Virus genome (UHGV): UHGV-1380525
Direction: 5' to 3' (one strand)
DNA length: 47,960 nucleotides
Origin: a virus
The notes under the pieces are model-generated. The model did not search any database and was not told the DNA's origin. It worked only from the letters and a program-made list of their open reading frames with translations. Made by a program: the position numbers and the translations under genes. Shown here in pieces: positions 2,887 through 45,738 of the stretch; within the stretch, counting starts at the first letter, position 1, and each line of letters opens with the position of its first letter.

Positions 2887-3330
2887 ATGACTATAAATAT
2901 TAACGAAGTTCAGGAAATTATTAAAAACCTTGAGAGCGTTGGTGAACTCTCAATCAAAGAGGAAAAATACCTCAAGGTTGCAAGGCTGTGCGTGCAGCTG
3001 GCCGCTGAGAATGTGGCGCTGAAGTCAAAAGGCAAGGAATTGCTCGGCGAAGCATGCGCCGTGTACTCGAGGCTTAATAAACTTATTGATCCATCAATCG
3101 GTGATTTTGTTGATGGTCAGACGCTCCATGAATTCCAGTTTGTTCTCGATGCGGAAACCCCCGTCACCGATCGCATCGTAGCCGGGATTAAGGCTGATGG
3201 GGTGGAGATGTTCGCTCTGATGTTTGCTGAAGAGGCGATCAAAGACAACAACATCACAACCGGCTGGAAAGCCAGAGCAAGCAGAGCGGCCTCTGAATAC
3301 GCAGAGTTGCTGCGCGAGGGTGCCAAATGA
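2887..3330 (+). CDS. hypothetical protein, 147 aa (alternative start at 2830)
   Basis: ORF track. Confidence 0.5.
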   Translation: MTININEVQEIIKNLESVGELSIKEEKYLKVARLCVQLAAENVALKSKGKELLGEACAVYSRLNKLIDPSIGDFVDGQTLHEFQFVLDAETPVTDRIVAGIKADGVEMFALMFAEEAIKDNNITTGWKARASRAASEYAELLREGAK

Positions 3331-3611
3331 GCCACGCTATCGATGCACATCTCACTGACGAAGTGATCAACGCCGCATTCGAAAACACTAATTTCGGGCG
3401 AGACGACTTTCGCACCATTCTGGCGGAAACCGTTATGAAGCGAGCCGCAGGTTATCACTCTGGCTGGACGGCGACGACCATTTGCACTCGCCTCAAACTG
3501 CTGGGTAAACAGGAGCGGCCAACAAAGCTCGGTCTGACGTTCGCCTTTCACCACTACTACCGCCAGAGCGTCCGTGATGCGCTGATGCCAAAACAGGAGC
3601 GTGCAGCATGA
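3327..3611 (+). CDS. hypothetical protein, 94 aa
   Basis: ORF track. Start overlaps the upstream stop (translational coupling). Confidence 0.5.
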   Translation: MSHAIDAHLTDEVINAAFENTNFGRDDFRTILAETVMKRAAGYHSGWTATTICTRLKLLGKQERPTKLGLTFAFHHYYRQSVRDALMPKQERAA

Positions 3612-3877
3612 GCAAATCATTCATCGTAATTATCCGGCGCGCCTGGTGTAACGAAGGCGGACACGGTATCGAATATTCATCTGACCTTATTCACTACGAG
3701 GCCCGCAATGGAGCCATATCACACGGTTTTCTGTCTGTGGATAGCGACGATTTCAATGTCGGCGTAATCGAGGACGGCAAGTTGATTTCATTTGACTGGA
3801 TGGACAAGCCGGTTGGTGAAAGCGAAGACACGCTGGCACAGATTGCCGAGCTAATTGGTCTGGAGGATGCAGCATGA
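3608..3877 (+). CDS. hypothetical protein, 89 aa
   Basis: ORF track. ATGA overlaps with both neighbours. Confidence 0.5.
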   Translation: MSKSFIVIIRRAWCNEGGHGIEYSSDLIHYEARNGAISHGFLSVDSDDFNVGVIEDGKLISFDWMDKPVGESEDTLAQIAELIGLEDAA

Positions 3878-35667: not shown

Positions 35668-38095
35668 TGTTCCTGCTGGCACTAATCTGTGGAGATGGCT
35701 GGAGAATTCCAGCCTTCCATCTGATATCAGGATTGCACTGAATGGCCGCATTTTTGGACCTGATGATGAATTGTCGATATCGTTAAAGCAAAACGATATT
35801 GTTAACATTTACTGTCAGCCTCGCGGCGCCATTGGCGACCTTATCAGCACGATACTCAAGCCTGTAACTAAGGTTCTTTCTTTTCTGCTGCCAAAAGCAT
35901 CAACGCCATCAACCAGCACCGGCACGACGGTTGAATCACCCAATAACAGCCTGAAATCGCAAACTAATATTGCGCGCAATGGAGAGGCAAGACCTGACAA
36001 CTTCGGTCAGATAAGGGCATTCCCTGACCTGATTCAGGAATCGCTTTTTGAATACATTGACGATCTGAAGTACGTCACTGAGTTCATGAACTTTGGCCTT
36101 GGGAAATACACCATTTCATCGGTTCGCTATGCGGAAACTAATCTTGGTTCTCTGCCCGGCGCCACTCATGTCATCTACAATCCAGGTGATGTGATCGGGC
36201 AAATCATTGAGCCTTACCAGTTCGACGGGCTTGATGGTCAGGAGGTTCCAGGACTGAACGAATCAGAGGACACCCCGATAGAGACAGCGACCACAACATC
36301 TGTTACCAGTGGTGATTATGCTGGCGGACAGTTGTTAATGGTCATACCAAAAAACACTGATTTCGATTACTTTATGGGCCTCTCTTTGCCGCACTCTGTG
36401 TCATTAACAATAAATATTACCTATAACTCGACATCCGGGCCAGTTACTGAAAATATTCAGCTTAGTGGCAACATCATTTCGGCTGAGGAAACTGAAACAG
36501 GCGTCATTCCTGATATTCAGTATTTCTATAATTTCACCTTCAATAACTTGACCGGCGCAAACCTTGGCAATCTGACCGGCGCAACCATCAACAACACTTA
36601 TTTCCAGATTGTGGATAATGAGGCGCTCGTTGTTGGCCCATATGTTGGAGCTGTGGAATCAACGCAGGTATGGGTTCATGTTCAGTCTGAGCTTGGTCCT
36701 ACCAGTGGCACAGCAGATTACCTGATCAAGGTATGGGCAGTTGATGATAATGGGGATGCCATTCCAGGAACTGAGGAGCAGCTTGCAGACAGTATTGACA
36801 ACCCATTCAATCAGACAACCAAAACCTATTATCGCACGTATAAGTTAACTCCTGCTCATGGGCTGGCTAAGTATGCCATCAGCATTGAAAGGACAAACAA
36901 CTCAAACTCTGGCAACCGCGTAACGTTGCAGGCGGCGCATGCCATCAATATCCGTGAAAACGTGGTTTATCCAGATGACACTCTGGTTAAAGTGACAGTG
37001 AAGGCCACGCTTCAGCCCACATCAGTTACTGAGCGCAAATATAATGCGCTGATTACCCGATGGACTATTGGATACAACAGAACAACCGGGACAGTCGACT
37101 ATACGTTAACTCCATCAAGAAGTTTTGCAGATTCAGTACTGCATAACTGGCTTATTACTGCTGGTCAGCCTGAAAGCACCATTGATATAGGCAGGCTCTA
37201 TGAAATAGCTGATGCGCTGCCTGATGCGCGCCTTGGGTATTTTGATTACACCTTTGACGATGAGGATAAGTCCATTGGTGAGCGAATTCAGACCATCTGT
37301 GATGCAGCTCGCGTGACGGTGTTTTGGGATGATGGCGTCTTATCGTTTTCAAGGGATGAGCAAAAATCAGCCCCTGAAACTGTGTTTAATACCAGAAACA
37401 CGCAGGCTGATGGCTATAAAATGTCTTATGACATGACTTTGCCAGGGGCATATGATGGCGTAAGCGTTCAGTACCGCGACCCAAACACCAACAAACAGGC
37501 TTACGTTTATTATAAAGTTGGCGCTTCTGGTATCGAACCTGGGGAGCCAACTAAACCGAAAAAATTCGACATGCTATACGTTCGAAATCTGTATCAGGCA
37601 ACAGACCGGGCTATGCTTGAGTGCAATCGCCTCATGTACTCACGTCGCGGAATGGAGATAAAAGCGCTTGCTGATGGCGAGTGGGTGAACGTTGGCGATA
37701 TGATTTCCGTTGTCGATATTTATGATTCAGTGCAGCAGACTGGTGTTATCCGCTCAAGGTCAGGAAATGTGTTCACCACCAGTGAGCAGCTCACAGCGGC
37801 AAGCAATCTGTTTGTGGTGATCACCGGCGCCAATGGTAATGTATCAGAACGTCTTGCTTGTGCCATTACTGGTTTGAACACATTCGAGTGCGCGTTGCCA
37901 TCTGATTTCGAGTTGAACATTTTTGACGGTGTTAATGTTCAGTCAGAATCAAGATATGCCATCTCCACAGAGGTCGAACTTGACTCAACGTTATGGACAG
38001 TCAGCCAGAAAACTCCAGGTACAGATGGCACGGTGTCTCTCACAGTAACTGAGTACAATGACGCCATGTACGCCTACACCAATCCTGTTGCGTGA
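35615..38095 (+). CDS. tail tip / central fibre protein (gpJ-like host specificity protein), 826 aa
   Basis: Size and synteny after the M/L/K-like genes. Confidence 0.7.
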
Positions 38096-38124
38096 TACAA
38101 TAGGGCAATTAATGATTACGGAGA

Positions 38125-40116
38125 TTGCAGCCGATGGCTACTACCCCAACTAACAAGCCGATCCCTTCTGAAGACCCGCGCGACCTGAAGTTTAACGCTG
38201 GGAAGATTGATGAAGAGGTCAACGGAAGTGCTGATTACTACACCGACCGATTCGGCATGCAGAGGCTGACTAATACCGGAAGGAATAACCAGTTCCAGGC
38301 AGCTCAGACTCAAAGGGAGTCTGATTTCCAGCAATTCCTCTTGAATTCTGGTTATAAGTTTTTAGGAGATTATGAAAATGGGCCTTATACAATTGCCGCT
38401 CGTAATCAGATTATTCGTTATCAGAATGAATTCTGGCGTTTAAATGCGGCTACCAATCCACCATACACAACCACGGGTATTAATAGTACATCATGGGCTA
38501 CCGATGTTACGCATTTGGTGAGCGTTGGTGATGCTAATTTGAGGCAGGAATTATCTTCGTCTGTAATACCGGGGACTTCATTAGTAACCCACTCTGATGG
38601 TATACAGCTCGATGATTATATGGAGATTTTTAACAGAAGAACTAAGTTTATAATGCCGGAGGATTTCCCAGGCACTGACACCGAACAGTTACTGGCCGCA
38701 AACAGCTATGCGAAAGCAAACAGAGTCAATGTGGTGTTACAGGCGGGGAAAACCTATTATGTAACCGGGTCGCAAGGGTTGGAAGTAGATTTAGGGTACT
38801 ATTCTTTCGAGAGCCCCAATGGCATTGCCTATATTGACTTTACTGGTTGTACGGCCACTTACTGCTTGTGGGTCCATTCCAGCCGACCGTATCCTGCTGG
38901 GTCGGAGAACCACTGTACAGCCATGCGCGGTATAAAATTTAAAAGCTCGATCAAAGGTATTAGTCAGCGGTTGCTGCTAACTGGAAACAATAACGATTCC
39001 AGCAACGGCACCTATAATGGTGATTGTAAAATCGAAAACTGTATTTTTTCTACTGCTGACATTGTTTTAGGTGCCTCTAACAGTACCTGGCGTTATAAAT
39101 TCATTAATTGCGGATTTATGATGGAGTCACCTGGAGGTACATATGCGATGCACTTCCCGGTGGGCATTTCGGACTCTGGAGAGTCGGTTACTTTTCAAAA
39201 TTGCAAAATATTCGACATGAAAGGATGCCCGATACTTGTTGAATGCGCAAGTTTTGCCATTGGGATGCCTGGCACATCGGTATTGAATACCCCGATTAAG
39301 ATAACTGGTAACGGTGCCATGGTCATCTTGGATTCGGCGGCCAACATTGAAAATCCAGGCGCGTCGGAGTGGTATCGCTACGGGGAAGTAACAGGAACTG
39401 GCGCGCGGCTCATCCTTAATGGGTGTACACTTGTGTGTAACAAGCCGTCGCTGCAAACGAAACCATTATTCTACGTGGGGGCAAACGCCTTCATCGATGT
39501 AACCCTTGTTAAAACACCAGGAAATGATTATCTCTTTCAGAATGGAGACGAAGGATTAAGAACTTTTGTTGAGGGAGATGGGTATGTTACCGCAACTCAT
39601 TGTATAGGAGATATCTTGTCCGGGGTGGGAAATATTCCACTCCATAAATCCCTTAACCCAACATTGAATCCCGGATTTGAGACAGGGGATTTATCATCGT
39701 GGACATTTAATAATCAGAGTTCTGCCAGTCAAACATGTGTAGTTGGTACAGCATATAAGAAAACAGGCACTTATGGTGCGAGAATGACATCGTTCGGGTC
39801 GTTAAGTTGTTTCTTAGTTCAAAAGGTAAAAGTAACACAGCATGGTTATTACTCGACAACGTGTCAAATCAATACAATAACGGCTGGAACAGGAGCAACA
39901 GCAGGGGCGTTAACCGTTACATTTTACGATAGGGCTGGCAACCCCCTCCAATCAGGTGCAAGTAGTAATTTTACTAACACCCCGAGCGGATGGCAATCTG
40001 TAGGACGGTTCATACAGGGTCGCGTGCCACAAGCCGCTGAGTACTGCGAAGTATCTATCCGCTGCCGTGAAGGTGCGGTGATCGACGTCGATAATTTCAT
40101 TATTAATTTTACATAG
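38125..40116 (+). CDS. tail fibre/tailspike with a conserved N-terminal anchor, central right-handed beta-helix (pectate-lyase-like) and a C-terminal carbohydrate-binding-like domain
   Basis: The N-terminal ~150 aa are predicted anchor-like. Beta-helix-like repeats occur at NCGFMMESPGG and FQNCKIFDMKGCP. C-terminal jelly-roll-like segment at GDLSSWTFNNQSS... Confidence 0.7.
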   Translation: MQPMATTPTNKPIPSEDPRDLKFNAGKIDEEVNGSADYYTDRFGMQRLTNTGRNNQFQAAQTQRESDFQQFLLNSGYKFLGDYENGPYTIAARNQIIRYQNEFWRLNAATNPPYTTTGINSTSWATDVTHLVSVGDANLRQELSSSVIPGTSLVTHSDGIQLDDYMEIFNRRTKFIMPEDFPGTDTEQLLAANSYAKANRVNVVLQAGKTYYVTGSQGLEVDLGYYSFESPNGIAYIDFTGCTATYCLWVHSSRPYPAGSENHCTAMRGIKFKSSIKGISQRLLLTGNNNDSSNGTYNGDCKIENCIFSTADIVLGASNSTWRYKFINCGFMMESPGGTYAMHFPVGISDSGESVTFQNCKIFDMKGCPILVECASFAIGMPGTSVLNTPIKITGNGAMVILDSAANIENPGASEWYRYGEVTGTGARLILNGCTLVCNKPSLQTKPLFYVGANAFIDVTLVKTPGNDYLFQNGDEGLRTFVEGDGYVTATHCIGDILSGVGNIPLHKSLNPTLNPGFETGDLSSWTFNNQSSASQTCVVGTAYKKTGTYGARMTSFGSLSCFLVQKVKVTQHGYYSTTCQINTITAGTGATAGALTVTFYDRAGNPLQSGASSNFTNTPSGWQSVGRFIQGRVPQAAEYCEVSIRCREGAVIDVDNFIINFT

Positions 40117-40125
40117 AGGTGTTAA

Positions 40126-40299
40126 ATGTTAAAAGTAAATGTGTGGTTTATGACAACTGACGCTCTTCCGGTTACAGTGGAAATAGATGATGGCGGCTCA
40201 TCGTTTTCCGACGAAATTGAAAAACAAGATTATGTGTTAGATTACTTAATGAACAATGGGTTTTCTGACAAAGAAGAATTGACATTTAAGATAGTTTAA
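40126..40299 (+). CDS. hypothetical acidic protein, 57 aa
   Basis: AGAGGTG RBS. Followed by a terminator. Confidence 0.45.
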   Translation: MLKVNVWFMTTDALPVTVEIDDGGSSFSDEIEKQDYVLDYLMNNGFSDKEELTFKIV

Positions 40300-40320
40300 G
40301 GGGCTTACGCCCCTTTTATT
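40298..40320 (+). terminator. rho-independent terminator
   Basis: ggggc-ttac-gcccc followed by ttttatttt. Confidence 0.8.
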
Positions 40321-40338
40321 TTAAATTTTTGCATTATG

Positions 40339-40358
40339 ATTTAGCATTAATGCTAAAT
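40339..40358. repeat. 20-bp perfect palindrome ATTTAGCATTAATGCTAAAT
   Basis: Read directly. Confidence 0.9.
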
Positions 40359-40416
40359 TTACACAAAAATCTAGCACCTTGCGCATTTCGTTCCATGTCT
40401 ATACGGTCTTTTTGCG

Positions 40417-40432
40417 CTGGAAAAATTTCCAG
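40417..40432. repeat. 16-bp perfect palindrome CTGGAAAAATTTCCAG
   Basis: Read directly. Confidence 0.9.
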
Positions 40433-40528
40433 GGGTCTAATTCAATATTAAACCCTGAATAAACATCGAAACATAAAACTTTATCATTTTTGAATTCCTT
40501 TGCGATAACTAGTGTTGCATCAGGCCCT

Positions 40529-40560
40529 GGCAATCCGTATATGTATAATTACGGATTGCC
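40529..40560. repeat. 11-bp inverted repeat GGCAATCCGTA / TACGGATTGCC around a TATGTATAAT loop
   Basis: Read directly. Confidence 0.9.
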
Positions 40561-40624
40561 TAAAATTACATCAACACCATGTTCATCTTTCATAGTCATA
40601 TACCTTATGTTGTTTTTTGAAAAC

Positions 40625-40699
40625 TCAAAACGGAATATCATCGTCAAAATCCATCGGCGGCTCGTTTGCCGGTGTTTTTTGTGTGCTTGATGGTTTCAT
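40625..40699 (-). CDS. micro-ORF (23 aa) encoding an SSB C-terminal-tail-like peptide, MKPSSTQKTPANEPPMDFDDDIPF. It is a partial duplicate of the 3' end of the 43895..44431 gene.
   Basis: Hand translation. TGAATG junction with the VRR-NUC stop. DNA and peptide both resemble ...EEPPVDFDDDVPF of the DUF669 gene. Weak RBS. Confidence 0.3.
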   Translation of the reverse strand: MKPSSTQKTPANEPPMDFDDDIPF

Positions 40700-41158
40700 T
40701 CAAAAGCTATCAATTTGTATACTCTTATCATGATGCTTTTTCAAAGGGTAATACGTTGCTCTCCAGCCATTGAATGCCATCATGGCTGCTTCCCATCCAA
40801 GGCATACGCACACAAAGCACCCCGCTCTTTTACTTGCCTCGAGATACTCAAGCTGACCATCCTCCCATTCGCAAAGTGTATGGTCTCTCCTCTTCATCTC
40901 AATGACAAGCGAGGGGTTCCCAGGGATTATTATATCTGAAGCTCCTTTGTTTAAAGCCCCCTTCTTTTTTAGATTATTAACTTCGTGCGCTCTTCTCTTT
41001 CCCTCGTTTGGGACGTGAAGAGCAAGGCGCCCAAAACTGTCAGGATACATTTTCTTCAACTGATTTATGAATGTTACAAGTTCAGCATCTTCTACAGGAC
41101 ATTTTTTATTGCGGTAGTCCTTTTCACCATAAATTTTTAACCATTCTGGAAAAATCAT
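40700..41158 (-). CDS. VRR-NUC domain nuclease, 152 aa
   Basis: PD-(D/E)xK-like DIIIPG...LVIEMKRRD. Confidence 0.65.
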   Translation of the reverse strand: MIFPEWLKIYGEKDYRNKKCPVEDAELVTFINQLKKMYPDSFGRLALHVPNEGKRRAHEVNNLKKKGALNKGASDIIIPGNPSLVIEMKRRDHTLCEWEDGQLEYLEASKRAGCFVCVCLGWEAAMMAFNGWRATYYPLKKHHDKSIQIDSF

Positions 41159-43020
41159 AATTCACCCCAGTACATACCTTTCACATTGTAATATTTGCTG
41201 CCTTTATCCTTTCTGAACATAATGGCAGTAGGATATGTAGCATCTTCTCTTCTCGATAGTGCTTCATCTATCTCCAGCACTTCTCCAAAAGATTTAATAC
41301 TGAAATCCTCCCACTCTCTTCTTTGCCATGTCTTTTCTGCCATAGGTTTAAAGAACTTGTTAACGAACCATGGTGACTGCTCAATAGCAAACTTAACTAC
41401 CAACATATCATCACCACTGCTTACATAGTGGCGAGTTATGCTCATCATTGTAACTTTTGATTGCTTGGTTGCATCAGGAGCAGAGTCAAGCCTTGCCGCT
41501 TCTTCCTGTAGCTTCTGGTTAGGGTCGATTATTTCTGCTTTACAACTCACGCAGTTACGCGCAGCAATATCATTTTCAAAACCACAATCAGGACATTCTT
41601 TGAATGACCATTTATGCGTGCAGCGACGCATTTCACGCAGCGCACCAACCATAATATAGTTCTTACAGCGGCGCCCAAAGTGTCCGGGCATTGGCTTTTG
41701 CCCTATCTTTTCGCCAGATTTATCATAAATATCTACCATTATTCTGTCACCAGCGAGATCAAGCCAATATCCCTCACTGTCCATATCAAGGCCTTCTGGA
41801 TTTGGACGCACTCCAAATTCATTAACAAATCCGCAAGATGGGCATTTTACTTCCATTGGAACAGACGGTTTTTTTCGTGTTGCTTTAATCTCAGGAGTAA
41901 ACAGGTCTCCTGTCTCAGCAAAATGACGCTCTATGTTTCCTGCATAGTCGCTAACGAGAAAGTTTTCCTTCCCTTCGTAAAGCCTTGTCCCACGGCCTAT
42001 TATCTGCTGATACAGGCGCTGAGATTCTGTGGCGCGCATAACTGCAATGTGATCGCAGTGCGGAACATCCACACCAACTGTAAGTATATTCTGGTTGACA
42101 ATGTATTTAACCTTCTGAGCCTTAAAGTCTGATATAGCCTTGTTGCGCTCAGCAGTAGGCATATCACCGAAAACATAGCTATAACTACCAGGAGGCAGAG
42201 ATTCCATAATCTCCATGGCATGCTTTTTCGTGCTGGCGAAAATCATAGTTCCCCGGCGATTCACTGATCGCCTGACGATATCCTCAACAATGCGAGACGT
42301 CTTGCGTCCTTTTCCAACCATGGCGCGCTCTACCGATGCCGTTGTATAACGCCCAAGCTTATCCTTCTCAAGTCCAGAGGTATCATATTCTTCTTCTACG
42401 TGCTCAGTAACTGGAGGCGTCAGGTAGCCATTATCAATCAGGAATTTTGCCTCAAGCTCATAAACAACCTTGTCATAGTAAGGATCAATGGCCGTTTCTT
42501 CGTCGGTTGGACCATCAATATAGTGCTCTTTATATATATAACCCGTACCAAGGCGATAAGGCGTTGCGGTCATGCCAATGATGCGCAGCTTTGGGTTGCG
42601 ACGCCTCATCTCATTAATAATAAATTTAATGGTTGGCGTGATTCCGTCGCACTCGTCAATAATTACAGCTCCATATTTATCGCCGAACATTTCAATAGAG
42701 TTTTTGATTGTGACAGGAGAGCCAAAAACAACAGGGTGGCGAAGATTTTTAGGGCCAGCCTTGGCGCTGAACATGCTTGCTGGCTCGCCAGTCATAGATA
42801 AAAAGCGCAACCTATTCTGCACAACTAACTCGCTGGTGGGGGCTACGCATAAGACTCTCTTACCAGTATTCCCCCACAACCAATTTGCAATAGAGGCAAC
42901 GACGGCGCTCTTTCCGCTGCCTGTTGGTAGAATAATCATACACGATGATATGCTGGATTTTATATGCCTGATCACTGCATCAACTGCTTCTTCTTGATAT
43001 GGTCTAAGCTTAAAAGTCAT
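41155..43020 (-). CDS. SF2 DEAD/DEAH-box helicase (type III restriction res-subunit-like) with C-terminal zinc ribbons
   Basis: Walker A ILPTGSGKS. DExD box IIDECD. Two CPxCG zinc ribbons in the C-terminal half. AGGTGA RBS for the MTFKL start. Confidence 0.85.
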   Translation of the reverse strand: MTFKLRPYQEEAVDAVIRHIKSSISSCMIILPTGSGKSAVVASIANWLWGNTGKRVLCVAPTSELVVQNRLRFLSMTGEPASMFSAKAGPKNLRHPVVFGSPVTIKNSIEMFGDKYGAVIIDECDGITPTIKFIINEMRRRNPKLRIIGMTATPYRLGTGYIYKEHYIDGPTDEETAIDPYYDKVVYELEAKFLIDNGYLTPPVTEHVEEEYDTSGLEKDKLGRYTTASVERAMVGKGRKTSRIVEDIVRRSVNRRGTMIFASTKKHAMEIMESLPPGSYSYVFGDMPTAERNKAISDFKAQKVKYIVNQNILTVGVDVPHCDHIAVMRATESQRLYQQIIGRGTRLYEGKENFLVSDYAGNIERHFAETGDLFTPEIKATRKKPSVPMEVKCPSCGFVNEFGVRPNPEGLDMDSEGYWLDLAGDRIMVDIYDKSGEKIGQKPMPGHFGRRCKNYIMVGALREMRRCTHKWSFKECPDCGFENDIAARNCVSCKAEIIDPNQKLQEEAARLDSAPDATKQSKVTMMSITRHYVSSGDDMLVVKFAIEQSPWFVNKFFKPMAEKTWQRREWEDFSIKSFGEVLEIDEALSRREDATYPTAIMFRKDKGSKYYNVKGMYWGEL

Positions 43021-43789
43021 TTTCATCACCTAAAAATTTAAATTTCTTACCTTTGACTGTTTTTTTGTTTTTGATAGCCCATGATATTGCACTGCCAGTA
43101 ACACCAACTGACTCAGCAGCAAGGCTTACTGTATCGTAAGAATTTCCACAAGAATCAATAACTGCCTTGCTAGTAGGTGAATTTCTACCAGACCTATACC
43201 CTTTTAGATTGCTTGTGAACTTATAATTACCAGAGTTATAATCATCAAGATATGCAAATCTGAACCCGCCAGCTGTACCACCTTCCTTTATGGCGTAATG
43301 AATATTACCTCCATGCTTTCTTCTTGCAGCAGTTAGTGTCTCAAAAACCTCGCCGGTATCTATATTGATTATTGGCCTTGCCTTTGGATTCATTGCGCCA
43401 ACTCTTTTAGACGCCATATCACCAATGATCTTTTTTGTTAAATCTGTATGTCTTTTCCCGTAATTTGGGTTTCCAGAGCCACTCATCAGTGTGGAAGCAA
43501 CCTGTCTGGCGTAGTGAAATGACCATGATGTATACCTTTTTCCACTCTTTCTACATTGCGATGTCATGGCAAAAAATGCTAACCCCATAGATTGATTCCT
43601 GTGAATCTTCCATAAGAGCCAGTGAATGATAAAGTGCTCTCTTCCAGTAAGAGTTACCAAGTTTCCCTTTTCATCTGTCCCACCCATACTTTTAGGAAGT
43701 ACATGATGCCTCTCCGTATAAACTTCCTTTGGTAACTTCCTGTTTTTTGCATTTTCAATTATTGAATCATGCACCTTTTGATAGTTCAT
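43010..43789 (-). CDS. HNH homing endonuclease with NUMOD3-like repeats, about 260 aa
   Basis: ERHHVLPKSMGGTDEKGNLVTLTGREHFIIH is the HNH motif. GNPNYGKRHT and GAMNPKARPI are NUMOD3-like. AAAGGAGAAAGC RBS. Own promoter. A terminator lies just upstream. Confidence 0.8.
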   Translation of the reverse strand: MNYQKVHDSIIENAKNRKLPKEVYTERHHVLPKSMGGTDEKGNLVTLTGREHFIIHWLLWKIHRNQSMGLAFFAMTSQCRKSGKRYTSWSFHYARQVASTLMSGSGNPNYGKRHTDLTKKIIGDMASKRVGAMNPKARPIINIDTGEVFETLTAARRKHGGNIHYAIKEGGTAGGFRFAYLDDYNSGNYKFTSNLKGYRSGRNSPTSKAVIDSCGNSYDTVSLAAESVGVTGSAISWAIKNKKTVKGKKFKFLGDENDF

Positions 43790-43851
43790 GCTTTCTCCTT
43801 TTTTGATTAACGAATTGTACATTAAATTCAAAACAGACGAAAGTGAATTGA

Positions 43852-43894: not shown

Positions 43895-44431
43895 TCAAAA
43901 TGGTACATCATCGTCGAAGTCAACCGGCGGCTCTTCATCCTGCTGCTTTGCCGTTTGCTTTTGTTGCTTTGCTGCTGGAGCGGATTTAGTCTTCTGGCGA
44001 CCAAATACCCCGGCAACGTAGTTGCCTGACTTCTGCTTATCGTCAGACTGCCAGACGCGAAGCAGGAGGATCATCGGGCGGTTAGCCAGCGCACTTGCGA
44101 TTGCAAAATCAGTAGGCTCTTTCCCTGACGCCATCAATTTACCTCCAGCGTTTGCATCAATTGCTGCCAGCATGCTGATGGCGTTATCGCGCTGCTTATC
44201 CTTCTGGCTGAACACTTTCAGCTTCTGGAATATGATGCGGTTTTTGTAATCACCGTCCAGGATGCGCCATTTAAGGTTAAAGAAGCGCTCACCTTCCCAT
44301 TCATCGTCCTTGCACTCCTCCACCGCTGCCAGCACGCGGGTGCCATCAGGAATAACCTCAAAACCACCACCAGCCTCAAATTCAGACTTTGACTCAACTT
44401 CTTTACCGTCAGAAAGATTCCAGAAACCCAT
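43895..44431 (-). CDS. DUF669-like single-strand DNA-binding/annealing accessory protein with an SSB-type acidic tail (DFDDDVPF)
   Basis: C-terminal ...EEPPVDFDDDVPF. Synteny with the Gp157 and Sak4-like genes. Confidence 0.55.
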   Translation of the reverse strand: MGFWNLSDGKEVESKSEFEAGGGFEVIPDGTRVLAAVEECKDDEWEGERFFNLKWRILDGDYKNRIIFQKLKVFSQKDKQRDNAISMLAAIDANAGGKLMASGKEPTDFAIASALANRPMILLLRVWQSDDKQKSGNYVAGVFGRQKTKSAPAAKQQKQTAKQQDEEPPVDFDDDVPF

Positions 44432-44447: not shown

Positions 44448-44927
44448 TTATTTGATGATCAGCTTTGGTTTTCCATCAGTGATGGCACAACCTTTAATTT
44501 CAGTTCCGGCTTTCAGTGCCGCTTTAATGGCTGCATTATCTGCCGAAAATTTTACAACGCGATACTGCTCTGGCAACTGCTCAACCGGGACAAACACATC
44601 CAAAACATGAGACGGTTTGCCAAGCGTGATGCTGAACAGCTTGCCTTTGATATTCGTTTTTCCAGATGCCAGCATGTTCTGACGAAGATAATCTTTAAGG
44701 TTATCTATCTTCGCAGTCAGCACACGTTTGCGTTCTGACAGGCGATCAATCTCAGCCTTCATGCCAGCCTCATCCGCCTCAAGCTCGCTGATATAAGCGG
44801 CCACCATCTCGGCCTTTCCTTCAAACTCCTCCTCAATCAGGTTAATGGTATCTTCAATCTGCTCGCGCGGAATATCTTCCATCGCAAGCAGTTCGTTAAG
44901 CTGTTTCGTTATCTCGTAAAGACGCAT
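44448..44927 (-). CDS. Siphovirus Gp157-family protein, 159 aa
   Basis: Coiled-coil N-terminus. Position between the Sak4-like ATPase and the DUF669 gene. Confidence 0.55.
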   Translation of the reverse strand: MRLYEITKQLNELLAMEDIPREQIEDTINLIEEEFEGKAEMVAAYISELEADEAGMKAEIDRLSERKRVLTAKIDNLKDYLRQNMLASGKTNIKGKLFSITLGKPSHVLDVFVPVEQLPEQYRVVKFSADNAAIKAALKAGTEIKGCAITDGKPKLIIK

Positions 44928-45738
44928 AATACTTAATCTCTGTCAGAAGTGGATTTTCGCCTTTATCAAACTGAATCTCAGGCTCAAGGTTGAAGCGATT
45001 TTTCGCATTGACGTAACCAACCCGGCCATCACCGGAGGTGACAAGTACACGTTGCCCGGTCTGCACAACTTTACCGAACTTAGTTACCTGCCCTTTTTTA
45101 TCTGTCTCAGTACCCTTCACAAACTCCTCATTGCGGATATAGATAACAGCATCGCTAAGCGCAACGTAACCATCAATACTGGCTTCGTGCATGTTGAGAG
45201 TATAAACGGTGTACTCGTCAGAATCAGGTCGGTTCTTCATCTTACGTATGCCGGCATGCGCAAGATAAATGATGCTCATCCCTTTGTTAGAGCGAAGATA
45301 CTTGCATGCGTTAATAATTTCAGCATGCATCTCAGCCACAACCAGATAGCCCTTGTTGTAACCACCAGCTGCTGCTCCAACGTTATCTACTCCATAGTTT
45401 TCGCAAACCTCATGCTCAAACATGGCGTGGAGGCTGGTGATAGAGTCGATAACCAGAGTTTTATAGTCATGCTCTTCTGTGATAAGAGCGCGCAACTGCG
45501 ACAACAAGTCTTCTTTGGTACTAGTTTTACGCTTTGCATCAGCCCGCTTCAGAACCGGGAATGAATCAGGCTTGTTTTCTTCGTCCCAGTCATCGAATAC
45601 GCCTGTAATCTCTTCCGCCTGAATGAAAACAGGCTTTGGGAAGAGCGCCGCCAGAGTCGTCTTGCCAACACCAGGGGTGCCAACAAGAGTAATGATAGGT
45701 GCAACTGGTTTTGGTTTTTGAATCATTGATAAGCTCAT
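44896..45738 (-). CDS. Sak4-like RecA-fold ATPase (AAA_24 family)
   Basis: Walker A LVGTPGVGKTT. Walker B-like LVIDSITS. GAGAGGA RBS. Confidence 0.7.
   Translation of the reverse strand: MSLSMIQKPKPVAPIITLVGTPGVGKTTLAALFPKPVFIQAEEITGVFDDWDEENKPDSFPVLKRADAKRKTSTKEDLLSQLRALITEEHDYKTLVIDSITSLHAMFEHEVCENYGVDNVGAAAGGYNKGYLVVAEMHAEIINACKYLRSNKGMSIIYLAHAGIRKMKNRPDSDEYTVYTLNMHEASIDGYVALSDAVIYIRNEEFVKGTETDKKGQVTKFGKVVQTGQRVLVTSGDGRVGYVNAKNRFNLEPEIQFDKGENPLLTEIKYYASLRDNETA

Follow-up and report, generated by a model that had tools for sequence, protein, structure and literature searches.

Directly behind the last full gene of a leftward early operon in a T1-like (Webervirus-type) Klebsiella siphophage lies a short open reading frame whose product ends in the acidic tip of an SSB, and this raises the question of whether the frame is a gene for a free SSB-tip peptide, an extension of the protein encoded upstream of it, or a piece of another gene that marks a site of recombination. 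We addressed this question using the whole stretch of phage DNA that contains the frame (47,960 nucleotides, referred to below as the window). Translation of the window places this frame, which we call the micro-ORF, at 40625-40699 on the minus strand, where it runs from ATG to TGA over 24 codons (minus-strand letters ATG AAA CCA ... CCG TTT TGA) and encodes MKPSSTQKTPANEPPMDFDDDIPF*, with the peptide stretch KPSSTQKTPANEPPMDFDDDIPF. Its ATG abuts the TGA of a 152-aa nuclease-like ORF located at 40700-41158 (...GAT AGC TTT TGA ATG AAA...), i.e., stop and start follow each other directly, and the two ORFs are in the same reading frame. The earlier note on this DNA had described an ORF straight after the stop codon of a VRR-NUC gene; the TGAATG abutment is as described and extends to a shared frame, and the number of codons is 24, not the 23 given there. 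The VRR-NUC label was not confirmed: the nuclease-like ORF has no sequence match in Pfam, NCBIfam or the PDB and matches only phrog_824, although GenBank entries of some relatives label this ORF VRR-NUC or type III restriction endonuclease. The features of the window that surround the micro-ORF are as follows.

38125-40116, plus strand: tailspike gene, part of the tailspike cassette and of a region (37500-40695) with 99.0% identity to phages DP01 and KlebP_265
40126-40299, plus strand: 57-aa ORF of the tailspike cassette; phrog_29315
40298-40316: GC-rich hairpin, a bidirectional terminator that separates the leftward early operon from the rightward tail genes
40317-40624, minus strand: spacer, ~98-99% identical to the region downstream of the intact ssb gene in DP01 and KlebP_265
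40625-40699, minus strand: micro-ORF, the remnant of an ssb 3' end, in which the DP01-like and type B blocks described below overlap by 71 nt
40700-41158, minus strand: nuclease-like 152-aa ORF (TTTTGAATGAAA); phrog_824, "unknown function", E 1e-36
41155-43029, minus strand: RadD(YejH)-like SF2 helicase; PDB 6jde (RadD), E 2.9e-99; Pfam ResIII and Helicase_C
43010-43831, minus strand: HNH/NUMOD3 homing endonuclease; phrog_655, E 9e-49; weak Pfam matches to HNH and NUMOD3
43895-44431, minus strand: DUF669-type phage SSB; Pfam PF05037, E 9.7e-5; phrog_9002 (SSB), E 4.7e-68
44448-44927, minus strand: Gp157-like gene; Pfam Sipho_Gp157, E 2.8e-37
44896-45738, minus strand: Sak4-like AAA_24 annealase; Pfam AAA_24, E 1.5e-27

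The helicase also matches the NCBIfam model heli_RadD_YejH with an E value of 7.7e-132, which is below the equivalog cut-off of that model, and the Gp157-like and Sak4-like genes, which are annotated as Gam-like and Sak4-like in relatives, make up the rest of the recombination module to which the helicase and the DUF669 gene belong. The spacer contains ORFs of 16 and 44 codons that lie in one frame with a TAA between them, and a perfect 11-bp inverted repeat at 40529-40560. The micro-ORF is annotated in none of four GenBank relatives. A functional RNA or terminator inside it was considered and rejected, as our searches returned only a sub-threshold His_leader match (E 0.22) and, on the plus strand at 40652-40674, a single terminator-like hairpin in antisense orientation, which is within chance expectation.

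Origin of the micro-ORF sequence

The sequence of the micro-ORF is that of the end of a different, canonical ssb gene. Codons 3-24 and the stop codon are identical at 69 of 69 nucleotides to the 3' end of ssb in Klebsiella phage DP01, a sibling that encodes, at the same genomic position, a 167-aa canonical OB-fold SSB (PF00436, residues 6-107, E 3.2e-39 in Pfam) with the C-terminus ...GWGKPQQPSSTQKTPANEPPMDFDDDIPF. In DP01, ssb is the last gene of the leftward operon that converges on the tail genes, and the 330 nt that follow it are ~98% identical to positions 40300-40624 of the window. Because both the 69 nucleotides and the flanking 330 nt match DP01, we conclude that the micro-ORF derives from the 3' end of canonical ssb. 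It is composed of ATG AAA, the last 22 ssb codons and TGA, and of its letters only those of the ATG and some of the AAA codon come from the junction. These last 22 codons contain the end of the disordered linker and the acidic tip (...DFDDDIPF) of a canonical SSB, and the OB-fold ssDNA-binding domain, which in the DP01 homologue occupies PF00436 residues 6-107, is missing. The earlier proposal to look in related phages for a full SSB gene at this locus was therefore a productive one, with siblings such as DP01 carrying ssb intact.

The source named in the earlier note was the DUF669 gene of the same genome, whose 3' end would have been duplicated within the window, possibly through an event associated with the neighboring homing endonuclease gene. 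Part of the observation behind this proposal holds. The DUF669 protein ends in ...EEPPVDFDDDVPF, with a tail that reads ...KQQDEEPPVDFDDDVPF, and 12 of 19 residues are identical between this tail and the micro-ORF peptide, which is significant within the window (tblastn, E 2.6e-6); in addition, an HNH homing endonuclease gene does lie next to the DUF669 gene. The claimed homology at the DNA level is nonetheless at chance level, with 33 of 42 nt identical over the tail codons and no similarity upstream of them, and with a blastn-short match of 27 nt at 85% identity (E 0.59) that is no better than those of random 11-mers in the window. The third position matches in 7 of the 10 codons for shared residues, a proportion that is not distinguishable from codon constraint. 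Set against this is the complete 69-nt identity to canonical ssb, together with flanking DNA that corresponds to what follows ssb in DP01. Insertion of the HNH gene between those for DUF669 and the helicase is specific to the window; this gene is 2.3 kb away from the micro-ORF and is missing from that position in phages 6991, RSU-F4K5, VLCpiS13c (S13c) and XY3, all of which have the same junction. We therefore rejected both the duplication of the DUF669 tail and the homing-endonuclease origin, and regard an intragenomic duplication as extremely improbable. The suggestion that the locus is the scar of a rearrangement is supported, with canonical ssb and not DUF669 as its source and with the HNH gene uninvolved.

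Two module types and the patch they share

Comparison of the window with its relatives identified two types of replication and recombination module at this location. Type A, or DP01-type, modules have the order helicase-HNH-RecE-Erf-SSB, and the leftward early operon thus ends in RecE-Erf-SSB. Type B modules, found in the window and in phages 6991, RSU-F4K5, S13c and XY3, have the order Sak4-Gp157-DUF669 SSB-RadD-like helicase-nuclease, with an HNH gene in the window only, and the DUF669 protein is the functional SSB of this module. The helicases of the two types share only 27% protein identity, i.e., the whole module differs between them, and in both types alike the operon converges on a highly exchangeable tailspike cassette.

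The window joins sequence from both sides of this division. Using megablast, we found that the 99.0% identity to DP01 and KlebP_265 spans the tailspike gene, the 57-aa ORF, the spacer and the ssb 3' end, and that positions 40625-42792 are 94% identical to the type B phages S13c and XY3; the DNA of the nuclease-like ORF is likewise 94% identical to that of 6991, S13c and XY3. The DP01-like block ends at 40695 and the type B block at 40625, and the 71 nt by which they overlap are the micro-ORF. A three-way alignment demonstrated that the window follows the type B phages up to ATGAAACCATCAA and from there on carries the DP01 allele, including private SNPs, into the downstream region. The overlap between the blocks shared with different relatives is thus exactly the patch, inside which there is evidence of a crossover, and the sequence upstream of the patch is one of two alternatives, either Erf and the body of ssb (type A) or the nuclease (type B).

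From these observations we consider it likely that the micro-ORF represents a remnant of the ssb 3' end and acts as a recombination seam, and that it is not a peptide gene. In the mechanism that we propose, the short ssb 3' piece of type B phages, placed between the nuclease stop codon and the block of terminator and tailspike, would provide a homology patch for crossovers between type A phages, with an intact ssb, and type B phages, with the remnant. Crossovers inside this patch would swap tailspike cassettes or, viewed from the other side, the replication/recombination module, and would at the same time overwrite the remnant with alleles that had been shaped by selection in functional ssb genes. 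Such overwriting would account for the conserved look of the frame and of its ...NEPPMDFDDDIPF tip. In the window, the tailspike cassette (38125-40299) may have arrived together with the ssb 3' seam or may have been exchanged through it.

Conservation and decay of the remnant

The window-type junction is present in 12 distinct alleles from GenBank, IMG/VR and ENA metagenomes, and has the pattern of a nuclease ending ...IDSF-stop followed by AT[G/T] [A/C]AA CCA TCA.... Scans with this junction pattern found seven loci in IMG/VR and four in a metagenome collection, which were mostly the same contigs, and the statistics on the start codon therefore remain at 12 alleles. The frame is open to ...IPF-stop in all 12; the start is ATG in 11 of them and ATT in allele L011, and the nuclease gene ends with TGA in 11 alleles, the exception being RSU-F4K5 with TAA. 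Downstream, the alleles continue into at least nine unrelated sequences, which start at, or just past, the micro-ORF stop codon. Pairwise DNA distances between window-type phages average 0.059 in the helicase, 0.053 in the nuclease, 0.078 in the remnant and 0.66 downstream. Because divergence is only about 5-8%, the retention of the ATG and of an open 24-codon frame is uninformative about selection; under neutrality, one would not expect the ATG or the frame to be lost at so low a divergence, and by the same measure the neutrality of the window allele is not positively demonstrated.

The variants found in the remnant are also found in intact ssb genes. Full-length type A ssb alleles (L031, L033-L036, L038 and L039) contain the same S/N/T and TQK/TSK/TPK variants in the linker, and the in-frame 6-nt deletion that gives MDDDIPF in some remnant alleles is present in the full-length SSBs of L036 and L038. 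Remnant and full-length alleles are interspersed, such that the allele of the window matches that of DP01, and the allele of phage 6991 that of L035. In addition, allele L007 has a Pro-to-Thr change in the conserved NEPPMDF motif. Since its variants also occur in full-length ssb genes, we interpret the conservation of the remnant as imported by recombination, and we found no conservation of the start codon or frame beyond that given by neutral descent or exchange. We infer that the micro-ORF peptide itself is not under selection and that its ATG is a by-product of the junction.

A second junction family was identified in YX3973, Sf11, ECO111, Sa179lw and three IMG/VR contigs (seven alleles). 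This YX type has a 64%-identical nuclease that ends in ...FDGF-TAG/TAA and is followed by a remnant of 38 ssb codons in frame with it (QPRQQSGQQ...GGNEPPMDFDDDIPF*); the junction itself lacks a start codon. Changes among these remnants are distributed over the three codon positions as 8/5/26, a third-position bias with p = 5e-5, and pN/pS is 0.10 with pS at 0.5. Purifying selection on the YX-type remnant, which such a value could be taken to indicate, was rejected on the following evidence. Divergence among the YX-type phages rises along the locus, from ~0.06 in the helicase and ~0.05 in the nuclease to ~0.11 in the linker and ~0.19 in the tail, and the downstream sequences are unalignable. 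Full-length ssb genes of many related phages, e.g., HC6, STGO-35-1, DS8 and seszw, have 3' ends that are ~90% identical to these remnants, and two Klebsiella phages, YX3973 and L032, have a linker of E. coli-phage type onto which a tail and downstream region of Webervirus type are grafted. This gradient, the full-length counterparts and the grafts argue that the synonymous variation was imported and not inherited vertically; it arose in functional ssb genes and entered the remnant through crossovers within it. Caution is needed before a pN/pS of 0.1 is read as selection on a gene remnant itself, as such a value can come from functional copies via recombination.

The third junction, in VLCpiS13b (S13b), contains a shrunken remnant of 15 codons (QQPSNSPPMEDDIPF*) that is in the +1 frame relative to the nuclease and has no start codon; this remnant has no counterpart in the database. 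The remnant is missing from the junction in gmqsjt-1, ECO95 and P400.

Remnants of the same kind are also present beside tailspikes in unrelated phages. In the G7C-like podophage PBM-2, an intergenic region that converges on an endosialidase tailspike gene contains ...PQGGNEPPMDFDDDIPF*, which includes ...GGNEPPMDFDDDIPF*, together with the same terminator, and G7C has a decayed version of this PBM-2 remnant (MGFED*). In the Kuttervirus ECML-4, the decayed 3' half of the nuclease gene and the terminator are located between tail-fibre genes. From these three phages we conclude that the 3' end of whichever gene converges on the tailspike travels with the tailspike cassette, and that remnants decay where they cannot be refreshed. 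No ssb remnants flanking tailspikes surfaced in full-text literature searches on Webervirus tailspike mosaicism and on the transfer of G7C gp63.1.

Alternative readings and comparison with known systems

Could the frame be translated and its product be of use to the phage, as the earlier note proposed? Abutment of stop and start (TGAATG) is a classic layout for termination-reinitiation, and for this reason some translation of the micro-ORF is plausible, although no Shine-Dalgarno motif is present in the 20 nt upstream of the ATG. Ribosomes that reinitiate there would release a free 24-residue SSB-tip peptide, an outcome that we judge unlikely; equally doubtful is the associated proposal that this peptide titrates host SSB partners (ExoI, RecQ, PriA, chi and others) or binds and activates Sak4 or, allosterically, the RadD-like helicase of the phage. 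The nearly constant ATG and the frame that is open in every window-type allele would fit such a gene, but L011 has ATT, L007 alters the conserved NEPPMDF motif, and remnants of independent structure (YX-type, S13b and PBM-2) persist without a start codon or out of frame. As every remnant variant also exists in full-length ssb genes, there is no selection signal specific to the remnant. With its final nine residues, MDFDDDIPF, the peptide matches the SSB-Ct nonapeptide of E. coli exactly, and free SSB-Ct peptides of 9-10 residues bind SSB partners with micromolar Kd values; E. coli RadD binds such a peptide with a Kd of ~5 uM, and its ATPase is stimulated by it (PMC10238739). A 24-mer with the exact E. 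coli-type tip would have biochemical activity. Two genes upstream of the micro-ORF, the phage encodes a RadD homologue that retains two of the three basic residues of the pocket, K24 and the equivalent of R145, with Trp in place of R49. In phage HK620, the tail of the DUF669 SSB, a distant SSB homologue found beside sak4, is required for stimulation of Sak4 (PMC5928155). Competition at micromolar affinity against thousands of tetrameric SSB tails would, by inference, require high levels of a peptide that is encoded last in an operon. Full-text literature searches on SSB-Ct peptides brought up no gene that naturally encodes such a peptide in free form, and if this reading were true, the micro-ORF would be the first natural "SSB-tail-only" gene.

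The shared frame allows a further reading, in which read-through of the nuclease stop codon adds an SSB-type tail to some nuclease molecules and thereby recruits them to SSB partners. The remnant is in frame with the nuclease in all 12 window-type and all seven YX-type alleles, but in terms of junction families this is two of three, with a chance of about 1/9 to 1/3. UGA followed by A is a comparatively leaky stop context and would favor read-through at the window junction. The stop codon itself varies, however, from TGA to TAA (RSU-F4K5, Sf11 and Sa179lw) and TAG (YX3973 and ECO111), and neither a conserved leaky stop nor a consistently in-frame extension is seen, the S13b remnant being out of frame. 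A frameshift version could be considered for S13b, in which UUU UGA C, a sequence that we take to resemble the prfB +1 shift site, precedes a tail in the +1 frame. Three separate recoding mechanisms would be required. In addition, the nuclease homologue of gmqsjt-1, which has no remnant behind it, ends at the same C-terminal Phe. Given the variable stops and the relatives without a remnant, we rejected fusion by read-through or +1 frameshifting as a general mechanism, and consider it very improbable.

If the micro-ORF is a recombination seam, as we favor, then as a peptide gene it is probably without importance, and its interest lies in what it reveals about exchange between phages. It would represent a nucleotide-resolved case in which virulent Klebsiella and E. 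coli siphophages swap a tailspike cassette and a replication/recombination module of >5 kb via a patch of ~70 nt, with tailspike genes carrying gene-end fragments into the unrelated families Schitoviridae and Ackermannviridae. The persistence of the remnant in several nuclease lineages would be unexplained unless the seam itself gives an evolutionary advantage. A weaker, and novel, reading invokes second-order selection for the seam, in that it would let phages without this ssb acquire tailspike cassettes from relatives that carry ssb. In annotation, neither such ORFs nor the overlapping ORF of the Sf11 gp12 type should be called genes. Remnants of this kind could be used to trace the routes of tailspike transfer and, because the seam would be a natural crossover site, for host-range engineering of therapeutic Webervirus-type phages.

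Several known systems resemble this locus in part. The canonical PF00436 SSB tip (SSB-Ct, ...PMDFDDDIPF) is what the last 22 codons of the micro-ORF encode, with identity to DP01 ssb at every nucleotide, but canonical SSBs have the OB-fold, tetramerize and bind ssDNA, whereas the micro-ORF is a fragment behind two junction-derived codons (ATG AAA) with none of these properties. Synthetic SSB-Ct peptides that act as competitors or activators (e.g., WMDFDDDIPF with RadD) have the same terminal sequence as the micro-ORF product and indicate what it could do if it were made, but are laboratory reagents, whereas the micro-ORF is phage DNA. The DUF669 SSB of HK620 is comparable to the window's own DUF669 SSB, which has a very similar tip, but the HK620 tail is NDYPPF and the micro-ORF is not derived from a DUF669 gene. 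The loci in PBM-2 and G7C (Gamaleyavirus) and in ECML-4 (Kuttervirus) are alike in that the 3' end of a converging gene and the shared terminator lie beside a tailspike gene in an unrelated genome; they differ in that no upstream ORF or ATG abuts the remnant, which in G7C and ECML-4 is visibly decayed.

Mosaic junctions are already known to harbor gene remnants and homology patches; what did not come up in our literature searches was an ssb-tail seam beside a T1-like tailspike, with its spread into Schitoviridae and Ackermannviridae. Lambdoid phages, which evolve in modular fashion, have short conserved "linker" or boundary sequences where mosaic modules meet. The seam described here is like these linkers in being a short conserved patch between alternative, unrelated modules, with crossovers inside it and with alleles shared across phages. 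It differs from them in that the patch is a recognizable coding remnant whose conservation is supplied by intact copies in other phages, and in that it borders the tailspike cassette of virulent T1-like phages.

Remnants of the ssb and nuclease genes in other phages

Three loci from phages outside the T1-like siphophages carry pieces of the ssb and nuclease genes:
L044 (Escherichia phage PBM-2, PV029541) 3501-3604: ssb 3′ remnant, reading ...PQGGNEPPMDFDDDIPF*
L045 (G7C, NC_015933) 3501-3559: ssb 3′ remnant, decayed to MGFED*
L049 (Escherichia phage ECML-4, JX128257) 3477-3800: decayed 3′ half of the nuclease gene, with the T1-like terminator

PBM-2 and G7C are both G7C-like N4-type podophages, and in each the ssb remnant is followed by the same hairpin terminator, converging on the tailspike genes. 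The presence of the remnant and this terminator beside podophage tailspikes implies that a tailspike cassette moved from T1-like siphophages into G7C-like podophages, flank included. The ECML-4 stretch, which is intergenic, carries no annotation and is flanked by Kuttervirus tail-fibre genes, is a further hitch-hiking flank; it reads ...GWEAAMMAFND*...PITINNF* and derives from the same gene as the nuclease-like protein of the window:
40700-41158 (-): nuclease-like protein, with homologues in L003, L014, L017 and L018

This protein is labeled VRR-NUC in the annotations of relatives, and has no sequence match in Pfam, NCBIfam or PDB. All of the nuclease homologues except that of P400 end in Phe (..IDSF, ..FDGF, ..INEF, ..INNF), and the tail of the window protein, QIDSF, loosely resembles a beta-clamp-binding pentapeptide. 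The nuclease ORF of Escherichia phage ECO95 1-6-1 (L015, ~2950-3000) contains an apparent in-frame TAG, 11 codons short of the end of the gmqsjt-1 homologue (...KQN* PSSPITISHF*). The record is unverified, and this TAG could reflect either a sequencing error or a true nonsense mutation. One annotated gene overlaps the ssb remnant in another frame and extends through the terminator:
L018 (Shigella phage Sf11) 2302-2484 (-): gp12, 60 aa
This is probably a spurious gene call, made because the ssb remnant is stop-poor and Q-rich.

Sequence around the micro-ORF

Three features lie downstream of, or antisense to, the micro-ORF:
40399-40599 (-): two small ORFs of 16 and 44 codons in one frame, downstream
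40529-40560: perfect 11-bp inverted repeat, GGCAATCCGTA-N10-TACGGATTGCC
40652-40684 (+): terminator-like hairpin and T-run, antisense, CATCGGCGGCTCGTTTGCCGGTG TTTTTTGTGT

The 16-codon ORF, encoding MTMKDEHGVDVILGNP*, is split from the 44-codon ORF by a single TAA located within the inverted repeat, and the layout of both ORFs and the repeat is identical in the sibling phage DP01. Neither ORF has a match in Pfam or PHROG. Possible explanations for the arrangement are a small gene that has been interrupted and an element that forms a hairpin in RNA. The antisense hairpin, which is no more than expected by chance for the region, could be a back-up terminator of rightward tail transcripts.

Homing endonuclease and RadD-like helicase

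Two further genes lie beyond the nuclease gene:
43010-43831 (-): HNH/NUMOD3 homing endonuclease, inserted between the DUF669 SSB and helicase genes
41155-43029 (-): helicase, a close RadD/YejH homologue (E = 2.9e-99 against PDB 6jde)

The endonuclease gene and the helicase start share a 20-nt overlap. This insertion is absent from relatives 6991, RSU-F4K5, S13c and XY3, and S13b has an endonuclease VII gene in its place. The tail of the DUF669 SSB is a possible docking site for this helicase. E. coli RadD binds the SSB-Ct through three Arg residues (R21, R49 and R145), and in the window helicase the counterparts of R21 and R145 are kept, as Lys and Arg, respectively, with Trp at the position of R49.
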